40,880 nucleotides of DNA from Chlamydiota bacterium (GTDB lineage: Bacteria > Chlamydiota > Chlamydiia > Chlamydiales > RGXB01), in assembly GCA_947494155.1 (NCBI GenBank), contig CANLTW010000012.1:1-40880 (forward strand), read 5' to 3'. How positions within the stretch are numbered: the stretch's first letter is position 1; each line of letters opens with the position of its first letter. Position numbers: made by a program. This document shows, piece after piece, positions 1 to 6,000 of the stretch.

Positions 1-3000
1 AAATAATTTTAAAAAAGTTTTGACTAGAGCATACTCGAGAAGTTGTTACACTTACTCTTAGTAAGCTCTACACAACATTCTCGCCGCTCGTCACTTCATT
101 ATTACTGTCACAGAACTTTGCAGCTATCTCGCTGCTATTCTTCGTCTTACACTCACCGTGTTCGTTGAAGATGACAACACAATAACACTCGCGCCGAATT
201 TAACGCAACATCTTTTGTTTTTTTTCGCTTGACCCCTCTAAAACAGGTGTGAGAGAATAGTTTTATCTACAGTGTAGAGAGCATTAATTCTTTATTTTTT
301 TCGAAAAATTTCAGGAACTCTTCACTGCATATAAATTAATTATTTAACATTCCAAAGGCGTCTCTTCACATGAAAAAGGTATTTGAAACAGGATCGATTA
401 AAGAACTATGGGGCGTTACCGTATCTCTGGCGATCAGTTATTTCTCCATGTTTGTCATGACCTTTGTCGACCGGGTATTTCTTGCCGCTTACTCCCAAGA
501 TGCGCTGACTGCTTGCACGACTGCTGGTACCCCCGCATGGGCGATTATCTTCGCCGTTGTCACCCTGATTTCTATGTCCGAAGTGATTATAGCGCAGAGG
601 AATGGGGCTGGCCAGTATAAGGCGTTAGGATCAACACCTTGGCAAATGGTTTACCTCACTTTATTAGCGACCCCAATCCTTTTTTATTTCGCCCCTCACA
701 TAGCCGATTGGATTCTCCAACCAACCCCCTATAATAAGGAGTGGTTTGTTTGGACGATCTACTCAAGCCCGGCCTATTTTCTTTTAGCGGCTTTTACTGC
801 ATTTTTTGTGGGACAGGGGAAATCTAACATTATTAAATGGCTTGCCCTTTTAGGAAATGCCGTAAACATAGTTTTAGATTACTTTTTAATCTTTGGATAC
901 AAAACGATAATCCCTGCTTTAGGGGTAAAAGGGGCTGTTATCGCAACAGGTGCAGGGACATTTGTACAGGCACTGATTCTCTTTTATATCTTTTTTAGAA
1001 AAAAGAATCGTGAGGAATTTGGAACCGCTATTTTTAAATTTGACCGCGATCAGTTTTACCAGATTTTAAAGATTGGATTTCCTCCCGGTATTTTTATTCT
1101 TTTTGAGATTGCAGGTTGGGCCCTTTTCTATCACATGATGACATCCCTTTCACCGTTACACATTACCACAGCTAATCTGGTACAGTCCATTTTGATGCTT
1201 TATTTCTTTTTTGGGTGCGGTTTGGAAAAAGGGGCTTCTGCAATTGCCGGTAATTTAATAGGAGCCAATAAAAAAGATAAGCTTTCTAATCTAGCTCGCT
1301 CAGGGGTAATTTTAAGCTTAGGCTATCTTTTATTTACGTGTGTCAGCCTCTTTTTATTTGCCGATTTTCTCATCATCAACCTTGTAAATAAGGAGACTGT
1401 TCCCGTGGACATCTCCACATTGCTTTACTGCACAAAAATGGTGATGCCGTTACTTTGCGTTTATATCCTTTTTGAAAATTTCCGCTGGCTTTTAGGTGGG
1501 ATCTTGATTGCTGCCGGGGACACTTTCTTTATGATGTTAACCGGTTTTTTCTCTGTTTGGATTTTCATGCTGCTACCTACCTATCTTTTCGTTTATGTAT
1601 TAAAGGCACACGTGATTTATGCCTTTTGGGTTTGGCTTTTTTACAGCATCTTTGCGACATTACCCATCTATTTGCGCTATAAAAGTTCGGGATGGAAAGA
1701 GCGTGCTCGTTTAATCAGCGATATAAAAGAGTCCGAAGAGCCGGCGCCTTTGGTTTCTCAAAACGAAGAGTCTTAACACCCCACATAAACAACCTTCACC
1801 TATGAATCCGAAGACCACCCCCCGCCTTTTTCTAGCCCCTATGGAGGGGCTTGGCGCCATCGAATTTCGTAAAATGCTTGCTGTAATTGGAGGATTTGAT
1901 GAATGCTGCACAGAATTTATCCGTATCCCTACAAATCCACATATCCCTAGTCTGGTTGGCAGGTATAACCCAAACGCCACATGGCCTATTCCCCAGGCAG
2001 CTCAGCTCATGGGGGTCAACGCGAAAGATTTGGCCGAAGCGGCATACCTATTGGGGGAAAAAGGGGCGCCCCGTGTTGAGCTCAACTGTGGTTGCCCGTC
2101 GAATACCGTTACAGGTAAAGGGGCCGGCTCAAGCCTGCTTGATACGCCCGATGCCCTTTTTGAAATTCTAGCCCTAATGTGCCAAAAATGCCCTGTCCCC
2201 GTAACTGCAAAACTGAGGATCGGGGTCAATGACGACCTGAATTTTCAAAAAAATATCCGCCTTGTTGAAGAGGCTGGCTGTAAGATGCTCACTCTTCATG
2301 CCAGAACAAAATCTGATGGCTACCTTCACCCCGCTAGGTGGGAATATATCCAAGAGGCAAAAAAACAGCTCCGTATCCCTGTTTGTGGCAATGGCGACAT
2401 TACCTCAGCAGAAAAGGGGCTCGAAATGTTAAGTAAAACGGGTTGCGATCATCTAATGATTGGTAGAAAAGCCGCAAGCGATCCTTTTATTTTTAAAAAA
2501 ATCCGCTGCGCTTTAGAAAAAAGGGATTTTATTGAGGATATCCCCCTACTTTTTAAAGCTCTTGAGGTTTTTTTTCAGGAAATTTTCCATAGGGAATCCC
2601 CTATGGGTTCCATCAAGCAGCTGGGTAGTTTTCTACTATCCGATGATCCAGTACTACGCCGAGAGTTTTTGACTCGCTCCTACAGCTCTACTTTGGAGGC
2701 CAAAGGGCAGCTCATTGGCTCGCTTGAAAATCTCTTTTTCAGTCTATCCCACTCCAAATAAGCATCTAAACCATTAACTTGTATTTTTATTTATAAAATA
2801 TTATTTTAAGGGAAATCGGGGGTATATGCGCGACAAACGGCGACGTATTGTCATTTTAGGAGGGGGCTTTGGGGGAGTATACACTGCCAAGCACCTGCAT
2901 TCCCTTTTTTCTAACGACGAGGTCGAAATCTGCCTTGTGAATCGTGATAATTACATGACTTTTCAGCCTATGCTTGCGGAGGTGATTGGAGATGCATTAG

Positions 3001-6000
3001 GCGTGTACGATACAGTGAGTGCCCTATCTTCTCTTCTCCCCAAAACCTCTCTATACATAAACGAAATAGAAAAAATTAACCTGCAGGAAAAAAAGGTTTT
3101 TTTGATCTGTCCTTTCAAAAAACAACATATTGTTCTTGAATACAGTGAACTAGTTCTTGCTCTGGGAAATTCTACCGATTTTATCCATCTCCATAACGGG
3201 GTCGCGCAACATGCCCTCAGATTTAAAAATCTTTCCGATACTTTAATTTTGAGGAATCACATTATCAATGTATTCCAGGCAGCCGCGACGGAGACAAATC
3301 CTCAGCTAAGGCAGGCTCTTTTGACTTTTGTCATCGGGGGGGCTGGATTCACAGGGACAGAGGTTGCAGCCGAGCTTTGTGATTTTTTAGATAAAATGCT
3401 CAAAAAAATACCCAGCATAAAGAAAGACGAGGTGCGGGTCTATCTCGTACACTCAAAAGAGATCATCCTGAATGAACTCTCCCCCTCACTTGGTAAATAT
3501 GCTATGGAACTTTTGCGCAAAAAAGGGGTCACATTGAAAATGGGGATGAAAGTAGAGGCAGTAACTCCACACAACGCCGTGCTTAGCAATCATGAAAAAA
3601 TCGCTTCAAAAACGGTTATCTCTACGGCTCCAGCTAACCTTAACCTCATTTTAGCAGCAACACCAGGTTTGCCGGTAACCCATGATCGTGTCAAAGTTCT
3701 ACCTAATCTTCAAGTAGAGGGTTTTGACAACGTTTGGGCTTTGGGAGATGCTGCACACATCCCACTTCCCAATGGCCATTTTGCACCCCCTACAGCTCAG
3801 TTTGCAGTACGGGAAGCAAAAGTTTTGGCGCAAAATATCGCCAATAAACTCGCTCAACGCCCTTTAAAGTCGTTTGCTTTTAAACCTCTTGGTCTTTTGG
3901 CAGCTTTGGGGCATCGCAAGGCTGTAGGAGAACTATTCGGCTGTGTAAAAATTTCCGGTTTTTTTGCTTGGCTGATGTGGAGAGCTATCTATTGGTCCAA
4001 AATGCCCGGTTTATCTAGAAAACTTAAGGTGCTATTCACCTGGATTTTAGATCTTTTTATCCCTTCAGAGCCGGTAGTTTTAAATATTAGCTCAAAAAAA
4101 ATGATGCATCATCTCCACTTCAAAGCCTCTGAAATGGTTTTCGACCAGGGTGATTTAGCCGATTATCTCTACATTATTTTAAAAGGGAGAGTTGCTATCA
4201 TAAAAAAATTTACAGGTGATGGGGAAAAAATTCTTAAAGAGCTTACGGCAGGGAGTTTTTTTGGGGAAATAGCTTTAACACACGATACCAATCGAACCGC
4301 AAAAGTGGTTTGTCTAGAATCGACCGATCTTATCGCGATACCCAAAGAGGAATTCTTAATTATGAAGGATAATTTCTCAGAGTTAGATAAGTTTTTGAGC
4401 GCTGTGCAACAAGAGAGGCTTGAAGAGCTGCATAAATTGAAAAAAAGCTCTTAACCGAGTTTTTTTTGCAATGTAACAATCCCCTTATCATCAATCATCG
4501 CACCCTCATTATAAAGTTCTTTAGGATTTTCCTTGGCGATTTTAGCTATTGGATTAAAATTTAAAGCCTCGTGAGGGCATTTAAGGGCTTTTTCCATGTT
4601 CATCGACTTAGCTAAAAAAGGGAGCCCTAAAATGACGGTTTGCTCTATCCGTTCATTCAAGTTTTGCCCCAAGTTGGAATTATTCACCAGATTCAACAAA
4701 ACCGCAGGAATATATTTGACCAAAACTCTATTCTCCCAACTAAAAGCTTCGTGTATACCCTCTAATTCCTCCGGAGCAAGTTTAAAAAGGGCCTTTTTTA
4801 AAAGATGAGCCTCATATGGGGTTGTAAATCGCATCATCGACCCTATCCTTAAAATAATCGGATTCAGATTCCCTTCTGTGCCGATTTCCAAAGCTTTTGC
4901 CCGCTTCTCCAAAAATGCGTCCCAAGCTTTGGACGATCCTATCAGAGAAATATTTTTGCACGCCTCTCTCACATCCAGTAAAAGCTGATGGGTTTTTTCG
5001 TTATAATTCAGAGAGGTACAGGGCTCAACATGCCCTTGCGCCCCCGCTACATCACAAATATGCCCGATAAAAGCCAGATCCATTAATACCTGATCTTCGA
5101 GAAAGTCGGATCTTTTTATCTCTTCAAATAATTCCACACCCCCTTCAAAATGGGCAATATGACCAAAATGGTTTTGTTTTCCCAAACGAACCAAAATGTC
5201 ACGACTTTTTTTATCTAAAGAGTTATACGAGGGGAAAATCTCGGGACAAAGCGTGGCGATTTTAGAAAAAAATAGATCTAAATTTTTCTCCTTTATCCCT
5301 TTTTGGGCGGCAAGCCTCCGTGCCGTTTTGGTTTTTCCCAAATCGGAGAAAAGAATGTAACAGCGCATCAATTTTTCTATCTCCCTCTCACTTTTGATCT
5401 CTAATTTTTCAAAAATAGAACAAAAAAATTTCTGCATATCCCTAAAAGTCGCATATTTAAGTCTAAATTGGGGATCCTGTTTGTAAGTCAAAAAAAGATA
5501 GTCTCTGTAGTTCCCCTTGGCAAAAACCTCAAAAGATTTTAGGGTCAAAACTGTTCTATCAAATTCAGGATAAAATTTTTTGTAAAGAATGTAGGAGGGG
5601 CTATAATCTGATACTAGCCCTACGCTCTCTTGAGTGATATGAACTTTTTGATCGGCAAGCCATTCTATTTCGGGAACCTCTTTTACAAGGTTTTTGATCC
5701 AGGCGGCAGTATACCCTATGGCTTGGATTGTTTCTACCGCCCCTTTTTCCCTAAATCTCGGTTTCATGCCTATGAGGAAAAGGCAAATGCAGACTAAAGC
5801 TAGATGAAGAACTCTCACCATGATCTCTAGTATAGCTTAGCGGCTAGTTAACCCTAAAGTATTAAAAAGAATCGCCACCTGGTTTTTTTCAAAAATTTCG
5901 ATCGCAAGTAACAGAACCTCTTGAATGACCTCCTGGTAGTCAGACTGTTCCATTTTTTTGGTAAAACAAATGATTTGTACCTGGGGTCCCTGCTGCGTCA

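Follow-up and report, generated by a model that had tools for sequence, protein, structure and literature searches.

The window, that is, the whole stretch of 40,880 nucleotides that was analyzed, carries on its forward strand an open reading frame (ORF) at 2826..4454 that encodes 542 aa plus a stop codon and matches itself at 100% in the genome search; the strand opposite is full of stops. By sequence and fold, the predicted protein is a type II NADH:quinone oxidoreductase (NDH-2) with a cyclic nucleotide-binding (CNB) domain at its C terminus. NDH-2 enzymes are single-subunit, non-pumping flavoenzymes on the cytoplasmic face of the membrane. All features given below lie on the forward strand. 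The flavoprotein body (Pyr_redox_2, residues 7 to 331; 2844..3818) is recognized by Pfam (1.3e-32), by phmmer matches to 4nwz, and by Foldseek. In phmmer, the ORF matches the Caldalkalibacillus NDH-2 4nwz (5.4e-39) and the mycobacterial 9mqy (1.8e-37), and the AF2 model (pLDDT 85.5, pTM 0.79) retrieves 4nwz_A with an E value of 3.6e-35 and a target TM of 0.91. Both GxGxxG motifs are invariant in the 119 chlamydial homologs of the fusion: GGGFGG (residues 12 to 17; 2859..2876), which from NDH-2 structures we take to be the FAD site, keeps G12, G14, and G17, and GAGFTGTE (residues 172 to 179; 3339..3362), by analogy the NADH site, keeps G172, G174, G177, and E179.

The NDH2_C domain follows at residues 356 to 408 (3891..4049; Pfam 3e-8, 34.1 bits with the cut-off at 27.7). 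It is modeled as three strands plus two helices (379 to 392 and 396 to 411), with W382, W385, R386, Y389, K392, P394, R398, and W406 invariant across homologs. In NDH-2 enzymes, the helices of this domain anchor the protein to the membrane surface and border the opening through which quinone enters. The quinone-site motif of characterized members is AQxAxQ; at its position, the ORF has AQFAVR (residues 324 to 329; 3795..3812), aligned with AQIAIQ of 4nwz. A324, A327, and R329 occur in 119/119 chlamydial homologs and Q325 in 118, and the equivalent of R329 is also found in 59 of 71 CNB-less relatives. Since the motif ends in Arg rather than Gln, the protein may use another acceptor or another chemistry than characterized NDH-2 enzymes.

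A predicted coil (residues 412 to 427; 4059..4106), in which P413, E415, and V417 are nearly invariant and conserved in CNB-less relatives too, links the enzyme to the CNB domain; with a linker pLDDT of about 61 to 63 and the pTM of 0.79, the relative placement of the two parts is only loosely predicted. The cNMP_binding beta-barrel spans residues 431 to 511 (4116..4358; Pfam 3.6e-21, 75.4 bits against a cut-off of 27.5), with a six-frame match at identical coordinates. These three Pfam spans are the ones given in a preliminary description, which had presented the protein as a 542-aa NDH-2 with a C-terminal cNMP domain. Its statement that the phosphate-binding cassette is intact at Gly-Glu and Arg-Thr-Ala also holds: the cassette (G-x-F-F-G-E-I-A-L-x5-R-T-A-K-V-V-C, residues 476 to 496; 4251..4313; sequence FFGEIALTHDTNRTAKVV) contains G480-E481 and R490-T491-A492 and aligns position for position with those of PKG and PKA domains. 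The closest solved relatives of the domain are the CNB domains of PKG, PKA, Epac, CRP, and Bd1971. Across the 119 chlamydial homologs, which are 44 to 91% identical, G476, F479, G480, E481, R490, and A492 are present in every one, and the residue after the cassette Arg is variable (S 42, T 39, N 14, L 11, I 4, F 3). This strict conservation of the phosphate-binding residues is evidence for a ligand-competent CNB domain in the chlamydial clade, with binding predicted. Among 79 representatives of the wider family with a CNB region, E481 is found in 60 (missing from 19), R490 in 47 (missing from 32), and A492 in 44. The domain can thus persist without a canonical ligand site, which suggests that in the wider family it also has a ligand-independent role. 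The protein ends in a long helix in the AF2 model (residues 518 to 541; 4377..4448; R531 in 119/119), which may serve the CNB domain as its lid or hinge.

The genome that carries the ORF, G000 (1,414,195 bases in 24 contigs, 97.6% complete), has a single PF00027 match even at E≤1, namely, the fusion, and searches of G000 for GAF and for the CRP-type helix-turn-helix HTH_Crp_2 returned neither. As judged by these profiles, the fusion is the only recognizable cNMP receptor in G000, as had been claimed. The single HAMP-class III cyclase reported earlier was recovered at the same coordinates as the only PF00211 match (C1:89166-91667, reverse strand); this 833-aa ORF has a large N-terminal region followed by HAMP and a catalytic domain. 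The second, plain NDH-2 of the preliminary description is likewise present (428 aa; C2:129186-130472), with NDH2_C, no CNB domain, Gln at the end of its quinone-site motif, and 27% identity to the fusion. CydA of cytochrome bd is encoded, and NqrB and the complex I 49-kDa subunit family were not found in G000. No convincing cAMP phosphodiesterase was found in this genome either; it has two Metallophos ORFs, and the best CpdA score reaches 22.6 bits, where the cut-off is 225.

The product of the cyclase, called unknown before, can be narrowed as far as its sequence allows. A Lys in DK[FYL]xGD and a Thr in [YF]T[VA]xG, the substrate-specificity pair of adenylyl cyclases, were found in 20 of 20 chlamydial cyclases checked (that of G000 plus 19 from 19 other fusion-bearing chlamydial genomes). 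The pair recurs in CyaB of P. aeruginosa (3r5g); in Cya2 (2w01), a guanylyl cyclase, Glu stands in place of the Lys. With a catalytic domain of the Lys/Thr type, the cyclase of G000 most likely makes cAMP.

How far does this architecture extend? Among 401 chlamydial species genomes, the fusion is found in 78, belonging to 44 genera and 13 families; 76 match through residues ~523 to 542, and in 2 more the match breaks off where a contig ends or at an N gap. An earlier count of 39 of 149 relatives agrees in kind. Any NDH-2 match occurs in 288 of the 400 genomes scored (G005 was not scored), and every one of the 78 fusion genomes has at least two. In a quick tree, the fusion clade is a separate paralog, about 27 to 33% identical to the plain NDH-2 of the same genomes. 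The fusion is the sole PF00027 match in 66/78.

A PF00211 cyclase is encoded in 77/78 fusion genomes, compared to 154 of 323 non-fusion genomes and 106 of the 199 that have only other CNB proteins. Of the 170 cyclase-less genomes, 1 has the fusion and 94 have some other CNB protein. The single exception, G218, is about 90% complete. In a hand count by genus, a cyclase is encoded in 43 of the 44 with the fusion, and in f7, a family with patchy distribution, it is present in 7/7 fusion genomes versus 29/69 for the whole family. The 78 genomes represent 13 families, so relatedness confounds this co-occurrence and a Fisher p value overstates it. The two genes are not neighbors in chlamydiae; in the five single-contig cases G045, G052, G059, G060, and G106, the cyclases listed are about 0.4 to 1.5 Mb away from the fusion. 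In addition, 48 of the 231 cyclase-positive chlamydial genomes lack a PF00027 match, indicating that cAMP has other receptors or targets in this order. The earlier view that the messenger acts on an enzyme instead of a transcription factor cannot be generalized, given these 48 genomes.

Outside chlamydiae, NDH-2-CNB fusions occur in at least eight phyla, and 26 such loci were analyzed. They join NDH-2, NDH2_C, and CNB in one chain, with a length of about 540 aa in the minimal form; other lineages have forms with added FHA, CBS, TPR, AhpC/TSA, DoxX, or MIP domains. Chlamydial fusions are of the minimal form and unlinked to a cyclase gene, whereas a cyclase adjoins the fusion in some other lineages: over 80 loci from other phyla, a class III cyclase lies within 10 kb in 4/26 fusion loci versus 0/54 CNB-less loci, the adjoining genes coming from two phyla, and at one locus (L019) a HAMP-cyclase ends 4 bp upstream of the fusion on the same strand.

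Compared to known systems, the protein combines familiar parts. Like the NDH-2 enzymes of Caldalkalibacillus thermarum (4nwz), Staphylococcus aureus (5na1), and mycobacteria (9mqy), it has two Rossmann domains, GxGxxG motifs, and NDH2_C (target TM 0.83 to 0.91), but it differs in about 130 extra C-terminal residues, the Arg of AQFAVR, and an identity of 25 to 30%. cAMP switches the enzymes Bd1971 of Bdellovibrio (CNB-EAL, PDB 6hq2-6hq7) and mycobacterial acetyltransferase Pat, which also join a CAP/PKA-type CNB domain to an enzyme in one chain; the CNB domain of the fusion matches that of Bd1971 (1.6e-10) as well as NF058543, the Pat model (9.2e-10). Those two proteins carry the sensor on the N-terminal side of a soluble enzyme. 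The fusion carries it on the C-terminal side of a respiratory flavoenzyme of the membrane surface, and in the AF2 model no N-terminal helical motif precedes it. In plant and fungal mitochondria, Ca2+-binding NDH-2 (for example, NDB1/NDE1) has an EF-hand insertion as a built-in second-messenger sensor, to our knowledge the only precedent for direct messenger control of an NDH-2; there the messenger is Ca2+, the enzyme is eukaryotic, and the sensor is inserted within it rather than appended. A literature search for functional studies (binding or activity) of any NDH-2-CNB fusion member found none. As an architecture, the fusion is widespread, neither rare nor new: it is spread over 44 genera of chlamydiae as well as many other phyla, and prokaryotic CNB domains C-terminal to pyridine-nucleotide-disulphide oxidoreductases were tabulated in 2007 ("Bact_Pyrredox"; Kannan et al., Genome Biol 8:R264, PMC2246266). 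As described in that tabulation, Bact_Pyrredox has a GE...R.A-type cassette and tandem CNB domains where the fusion has one, a comparison of families by description only.

Established are the architecture and fold, the conservation of catalytic and ligand residues, the sole-receptor status in G000, and the cyclase co-occurrence with occasional operon linkage. From these sequence-based data we infer, with a probability of roughly 55%, that cAMP allosterically regulates the fused NDH-2; binding, an effect on activity, its sign, and the lever all belong to this inferred part. The membrane-surface helices of NDH2_C continue through the 16-residue linker into a canonical CNB domain. cAMP, supplied by the single class III cyclase, would bind the cassette (G480, E481, R490, A492) and move the B/C helices, changing NDH-2 output. 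Because the CNB domain hangs directly on the helices that fix the enzyme to the membrane and flank the entry site for quinone, the lever would most likely be the access of quinone or the docking to the membrane, and less likely the binding of NADH.

Three other explanations were considered. The enzyme might be nucleotide regulated yet serve as a specialized reductase of quinone or another acceptor, for example in redox-stress protection or in keeping the quinone pool reduced, with the plain paralog carrying respiration. The distinct clade, the second NDH-2 in all 78 fusion genomes, the conserved Arg where the plain paralog of G000 has Gln, relatives fused to AhpC/TSA peroxiredoxin or DoxX, and a fold common to FSP1-type quinone reductases point that way. 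However, the nearest solved proteins are respiratory NDH-2 enzymes (target TM 0.90 to 0.91), with FSP1 and SQR scoring lower, the NDH2_C membrane anchor is intact, and G000 encodes a quinol oxidase but no further recognizable NADH:quinone enzyme, so we hold this explanation to be unlikely, if the least so of the three. Slightly less probable is that the CNB domain is no longer a cyclic-nucleotide switch and acts as a structural module (dimerization, membrane positioning, or partner docking) or, like several domains of the CRP/FNR family, binds another small molecule. Cassette decay in the wider family, the scaffold-like addition of FHA, CBS, TPR, AhpC/TSA, and other modules behind the CNB domain, the variable residue after the cassette Arg, and the unlinked chlamydial genes would suit it. 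A purely structural role needs no invariance of phosphate-contact residues at such divergence, though, and it leaves aside both the cyclases adjoining fusions in two other phyla and the contrast between fusions, nearly always accompanied by a cyclase, and other CNB proteins, common in cyclase-less genomes.

The messenger could also be real but not the bacterium's own cAMP, namely, cGMP or host-derived cAMP or cGMP, these bacteria being obligate intracellular and living in a host cell. Among solved structures, the domain is closest to domains of cGMP-dependent kinases (5dyk, 1.1e-22), and its cassette has R-T-A as in PKG, but selectivity cannot be read from resemblance to PKG domains. At the specificity positions, a fusion-adjoining cyclase in Rokubacteriota carries Glu/Ala, resembling Cya2 (Glu/Gly), against the Lys/Thr pair of all chlamydial cyclases checked. 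Within the order, the Chlamydiaceae-like family f4 has a CNB protein in 29 of 29 genomes, with cyclases in 0 of 30, making it plausible that host-derived or other nucleotides are sensed; G218, with the fusion and no cyclase match, also speaks for this explanation. The other 77 fusion genomes encode their own cyclase, and we consider this explanation, by a small margin, the least probable of the three.

The preliminary description is partly supported overall; its "gated entry point" into the respiratory chain appears overstated. With an unregulated second NDH-2 also retained by the cell, the fused enzyme would offer an additional route for oxidizing NADH that can be switched and that supplies cytochrome bd. 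If this is true, cAMP would probably act directly on electron entry into respiration.

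The fusion is encoded by a single open reading frame (ORF) of 542 codons at 2826 to 4454 on the forward strand, with many stops closing the opposite strand. ORF analysis, Pfam and a structural model confirm that this one frame carries a type II NADH:quinone oxidoreductase (NDH-2) and a cyclic-nucleotide-binding (CNB) domain. Pfam assigns Pyr_redox_2 to residues 7 to 331 (E = 1.3e-32, above the curated cutoff), NDH2_C to residues 356 to 408 (E = 3e-8, 34.1 bits versus a cutoff of 27.7), and cNMP_binding to residues 431 to 511 (E = 3.6e-21, 75.4 bits versus a cutoff of 27.5). The solved proteins nearest to residues 7 to 384 are respiratory NDH-2s, namely, 4nwz from Caldalkalibacillus (5.4e-39), the mycobacterial 9mqy (1.8e-37), and 5na1 from S. 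aureus (1.1e-31). An AlphaFold2 model built from 119 homologues (mean pLDDT 85.5, pTM 0.79) has the overall fold of solved NDH-2s, its first ~406 residues matching 4nwz_A with an E value of 3.6e-35, a target TM of 0.91, and an rmsd of 2.2 over 406 columns. Both dinucleotide-binding Rossmann domains with GxGxxG (FAD and NADH) are present, and the NDH2_C helices at 379 to 392 and 396 to 411 form the C-terminal membrane-anchoring domain. Across the alignment of 119 chlamydial fusion homologues, G12, G14, G17, G172, G174, G177, E179, and G307-D308 are invariant in all 119, as is the membrane-helix pattern (W382, W385, R386, Y389, K392, P394, R398, and W406), placing the catalytic half under constraint equal to that on the sensor half. 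The fusion protein is an intact NDH-2, with quinone-reductase activity predicted from its sequence.

The quinone-site motif of characterized NDH-2s, AQxAxQ, appears in the fusion as AQFAVR, aligned to AQIAIQ of 4nwz, with the first four positions kept and Arg instead of Gln at the last, a change that may alter the acceptor or the chemistry. All 119 chlamydial homologues have this Arg, A324, and A327, and 118 have Q325. A tie between the Arg and the sensor domain was ruled out: because 59 of 71 CNB-less relatives also have it, it is a trait of the wider clade, unlinked to the sensor.

For residues 425 to 535, the nearest solved structures are the CNB domains of PKG, PKA, Epac, CRP, and the Bdellovibrio EAL enzyme Bd1971. 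The model contains the eight-stranded beta-barrel expected for PF00027 at 428 to 506, with a short cassette helix at 481 to 485, followed by a B helix (507 to 516) and a long C helix (518 to 541) that would provide the hinge and lid. The Gly-Glu and Arg-x-Ala positions of the phosphate-binding cassette (476 to 496) are in place: G480, E481, R490, and A492, presumably the residues that take part in phosphate binding, align to the PKG and PKA cassettes. Cassette residues G476, F479, G480, E481, R490, and A492 are invariant in the 119 homologues, which are 44 to 91% identical, as are barrel residues F439, G442, D443, Y449, G454, and F510 and C-helix residue R531; the position after the cassette Arg is variable (of 119: S 42, T 39, N 14, L 11, I 4, F 3). 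In PKA and Epac, an N-terminal helical (N3A) motif precedes the barrel. It is absent from the model, where residues 412 to 427 are coil (pLDDT about 61 to 63) and the preceding helices are those of NDH2_C; since not every member of the family has N3A, the assignment to the CNB family stands. In the model the membrane-anchor helices lead to the first barrel strand with no further helix in between, so that they take the place that the N-terminal helical motif occupies in PKA-type domains. The cassette of the chlamydial fusion is intact and strictly conserved, and binding of cAMP or cGMP is predicted.

The host genome (1,414,195 bases in 24 contigs, 97.6% complete) was described earlier as having one CNB protein, one class III cyclase, and a second, plain NDH-2, and our searches bear out all three points. 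Even at E ≤ 1, the one PF00027 match is the fusion ORF. The single PF00211 match is an 833-aa ORF with a HAMP domain (C1:89166-91667, reverse strand). The plain NDH-2 (428 aa; C2:129186-130472) is 27% identical to the fusion and has NDH2_C without a CNB domain. CydA of cytochrome bd is present; searches of the genome for NqrB/RnfD and for the 49-kDa subunit of complex I found neither, and likewise no GAF domain or CRP-type HTH was found. A search for a cAMP phosphodiesterase returned two generic metallophosphoesterases, the best CpdA score being 22.6 bits versus a cutoff of 225. As far as these searches see, NADH would reach the quinone pool only via the two NDH-2s, and the only CNB-type receptor for the cyclase product would be one of them.

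The 833-aa cyclase scores 67.3 bits with PF00211 versus a cutoff of 21.9, and its motifs FLDFRKFT, DKFEGD, FTVIG, and VNITSR align with Pseudomonas aeruginosa CyaB (3r5g). It thus has the full residue set of a class III adenylyl cyclase, in which we take the two Asp residues to bind metal, Lys and Asp/Thr to specify the substrate, and Asn and Arg to stabilize the transition state. The solved structures nearest to its cyclase domain are Cya2 (2w01), the engineered adenylyl form of Cya2 (6fht), and CyaB. At the specificity positions it has Lys (in DKFEGD) and Thr (in FTVIG), the same pair as CyaB, whereas in Cya2 Glu replaces the Lys. All 19 cyclases from 19 other fusion-bearing chlamydial genomes share the Lys/Thr pair. 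Class IIIb enzymes with this pair frequently respond to bicarbonate. These residues suggest that the product is likely cAMP. Directly downstream of the cyclase gene, on the same strand, lies a gene for a 285-aa histidine kinase (HisKA/HATPase) whose N terminus is short (C1:88183-89040, reverse strand; positions 493 to 1350 of fetched locus L002); the two may form a linked signaling pair.

The neighbors of the fusion gene give no pointer to its function. Upstream, on the same strand, are genes for a MatE transporter (370 to 1776) and a dihydrouridine synthase (1802 to 2761); downstream, a convergent reverse-strand gene for a DUF6829 protein (4451 to 5821) overlaps the fusion stop by 4 bases, and a gene for an MscS-type channel (5837 to 6823, reverse) lies beyond it. 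Further along the window, all on the reverse strand, are an ordinary-looking lysine/diaminopimelate cluster (10733 to 14283; aminotransferase, semialdehyde dehydrogenase, DHDPS, and DapB) and a CofD/YvcK-family gene (32098 to 33087; PF01933, 1.1e-87) beside those for a HAD hydrolase and ribulose-phosphate 3-epimerase. Window ORFs at 14807 to 15964 (reverse), 17457 to 19425 (forward, three ORFs), 21155 to 22171 (reverse), and 33752 to 35578 (reverse) have no Pfam match at 1e-5; they encode 191 to 608 aa, the 608-aa one lying between the ribulose-phosphate epimerase and amino-acid kinase genes.

The NDH-2-CNB fusion is not rare. A 90%-clustered collection yielded 4,183 matches at E ≤ 1e-10, and the best 120 of these (44 to 91% identical) almost all combine PF07992 and PF00027, with or without PF22366; their source names include Chlamydiae/Simkaniaceae metagenome bins and Simkania, a cultured relative with the same gene. 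Among 7,061 matches at E ≤ 1e-10 in a 50%-representative library, 68 of the best 150 align in one stretch to residue 500 or beyond, and 79 of the best 150 have the CNB region by alignment. One representative is named as from an uncultured Thermomicrobiales bacterium. Pfam searches of 21 representatives found the same core with additions of FHA (one to three), CBS pairs, TPR, AhpC/TSA, HlyD, or ApbA, and some carry DoxX or an aquaporin-type MIP channel at the N terminus. Proteins with such an extended core are P0124 (a nonchlamydial relative with an N-terminal DoxX), P0125, P0133, P0137, P0141 to P0144, P0149, P0182, and P0216, one of which is 1,465 aa long. The cassette is looser in this wider family (G480 is kept in 74 of the 79 representatives with a CNB region, E481 in 60, R490 in 47, and A492 in 44), suggesting that some lineages have probably lost canonical ligand binding and yet retain the domain.

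Beyond the order, one genome per species was scanned with a 12-sequence alignment as the query, which returned 80 loci. The fusion, defined by a match through the CNB domain, is found in 26 of these 80, from Acidobacteriota, Rokubacteriota, Planctomycetota, Bacteroidota, Chloroflexota, Verrucomicrobiota, Actinomycetota, and Alpha- and Gammaproteobacteria. Pfam confirmed the fusion in three of the loci. The 26 include L050 and L089, missed by phmmer and recovered by Pfam, and L097, whose tblastn match runs through the CNB domain but is broken by stops. This is a large family, with at least 68 clusters at 50% identity carrying the sensor domain among the best 150 representatives, and at least nine phyla.

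Within the order, 288 of 400 scored species genomes have an NDH-2 match. In 76 chlamydial genomes the match runs through residues ~523 to 542, and in 2 more it is interrupted by a contig end or an N gap; these 78 fusion genomes represent 44 genera and 13 families. All 78 have at least two NDH-2 matches, indicating that the fusion never replaces the plain enzyme. Two candidate natural split forms were rejected: the break in genome G381 is an N gap, and the additional piece in G292 belongs to another, tandem copy that runs into a contig end (L007, G292:C90:8400-11159; 192 aa visible, comprising the NDH2_C end and the CNB domain). In a quick IQ-TREE phylogeny of residues 1 to 410 from 47 sequences (37 of the 119 fusions plus 10 others; long branches flagged), the 37 fusions group in a single clade (SH-aLRT 99), with a CNB-less 434-aa protein from G077 as its sister, and the plain chlamydial NDH-2s fall in another clade. 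The G077 protein (L006 486-2271; G077:C67) ends just past the conserved linker motif DTVQLP, and a 163-aa ORF directly follows its gene, overlapping its last codons by ~5 bases.

Intersecting the match sets of the same 401 chlamydial genomes shows that a class III cyclase accompanies the fusion in 77 of 78 genomes, versus 154 of 323 nonfusion genomes and 106 of 199 genomes with only CNB proteins of other kinds. The lone exception, G218, is about 90% complete. Conversely, among 170 cyclase-less genomes, 1 has the fusion and 94 have another CNB protein. In the patchy family f7, a cyclase is present in 7 of 7 fusion genomes versus 29 of 69 genomes of the family as a whole. Of the 78 fusion genomes, 66 have no PF00027 match besides the fusion itself. 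These genomes are related, so that the nominal Fisher p of 7e-16 overstates the association; the pattern still holds across 13 families.

The two genes are not adjacent in chlamydiae, being about 0.4 to 1.5 Mb apart in the single-contig genomes G045, G052, G059, G060, and G106. Outside the order, a class III cyclase lies within ±10 kb (the span fetched) in 4 of 26 fusion loci versus 0 of the 54 CNB-less loci from the same 80, which served as a control. One of the four is a Rokubacteriota bin (L019 7991-11605, forward strand), where a HAMP-cyclase gene (663-aa frame) precedes the fusion (541-aa frame) in the same orientation and stops 4 bp before it; the others are three related Acidobacteriota, each with a CHASE2-cyclase gene on the opposite strand, 2.7 to 2.9 kb from the fusion. 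Linkage outside the order thus occurs in two independent lineages. The specificity positions of the Rokubacteriota cyclase hold Glu and Ala and so resemble those of the guanylyl cyclase Cya2, suggesting that the messenger may differ between lineages and that this pair may be a cGMP version of the circuit.

In the Chlamydiaceae-like family f4 (g4, e.g., G003 to G022; about 1.0 to 1.3 Mb), each of the 29 scored genomes has exactly one CNB protein, and all belong to the 94 cyclase-less genomes with another CNB protein; a class III cyclase was found in 0 of 30 and an NDH-2 in 0 of 29. The f4 protein is an orphan cyclic-nucleotide receptor, and its ligand may be a nucleotide of the host or some other molecule. 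No PF00027 match was obtained in 48 of the 231 chlamydial genomes that have a cyclase, many of them in family f10 (e.g., G031, G056, G068, G078, and G085), which makes it probable that the order has a cAMP receptor of a non-CNB type.

The preliminary description read the fusion as a cAMP/cGMP-gated entry point of the respiratory chain. That reading is supported in part: in its favor are the intact NDH-2, the conserved cassette, the sole receptor/cyclase pair of this genome, the co-occurrence, and the operon linkage elsewhere; the binding of cAMP and its effect are the parts that we infer. At a probability of roughly 0.55, our preferred reading is that cAMP directly regulates this NDH-2. cAMP would bind the CNB cassette, the B and C helices with the invariant R531 would respond, and the response would alter quinone access, membrane docking, or the dimer of NDH-2. 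These outputs would be expected to change because a 16-residue tether joins the barrel to the helices by which NDH-2 is anchored to the membrane and which flank the entrance for quinone.

Three partly overlapping alternatives deserve consideration. The protein might be regulated and yet serve as a nonrespiratory quinone reductase, an unlikely option and the best placed of the three; the plain NDH-2 present in every fusion genome is compatible with it, and the respiratory NDH-2s nearest in structure speak for the respiratory role. Slightly less likely, the domain might be structural or a CNB domain for another ligand; the loosened cassettes of the wider family show the kind of sequence this would predict, and the chlamydial cassette is strictly conserved. 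We give a shade less credence still to the true signal being cGMP or a host-derived nucleotide, for which the Rokubacteriota cyclase offers a parallel; the Lys/Thr pair of all 20 chlamydial cyclases compared and the near-constant presence of a cyclase in fusion genomes point to endogenous cAMP.

A prokaryotic CNB family named Bact_Pyrredox was catalogued by Kannan et al. (2007; PMC2246266, Table 1), whose comment on it, in the portion of that article available to us, is limited to the remark that NADH production may involve CNB domains. As described there, its CNB region is C-terminal to a pyridine-nucleotide-disulfide oxidoreductase domain, as in the fusion, whereas it has tandem CNB domains and the fusion has one PF00027 stretch; on that account we do not assign the fusion to Bact_Pyrredox. 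Full-text searches of the nonsubscription literature returned no functional work on an NDH-2-CNB fusion. The fusion belongs to a family that is large and spans many taxa; the family has been catalogued, and no study of it was found in the literature searched. CNB-switched enzymes are known as a kind; here the predicted output would be a respiratory dehydrogenase.

In many bacterial respiratory chains NADH enters mainly through NDH-2, which is also a drug target and whose control is usually placed at its expression and the supply of substrate. If cAMP or cGMP controlled the enzyme directly, respiratory regulation would gain a fast, posttranslational layer, and mechanistic and synthetic work would gain an NDH-2 that is ligand-switchable by nature. 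More speculatively, and at odds we regard as rather low, the whole cAMP pathway of this reduced-genome intracellular lineage could be a two-protein circuit without a transcription factor, running from cyclase to NDH-2 switch. An envelope-sensing HAMP adenylyl cyclase would report the state of the host vacuole or the outside, and within seconds cAMP would open or close one of two NADH lanes to cytochrome bd, e.g., as cells change between their dormant infectious and replicating forms. The membrane-anchor and quinone-gate helices, standing in for the sensor's usual N-terminal helix, would act as the lever. If true, this circuit would represent a new allosteric principle for NDH-2 in a naturally ligand-switchable enzyme. 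As a natural test case the chlamydial form is very simple: its architecture is minimal, and the 1.4 Mb encode a single cyclase, a single CNB protein, two NDH-2s, and a single oxidase, making this genome an unusually clean natural setting for the family.
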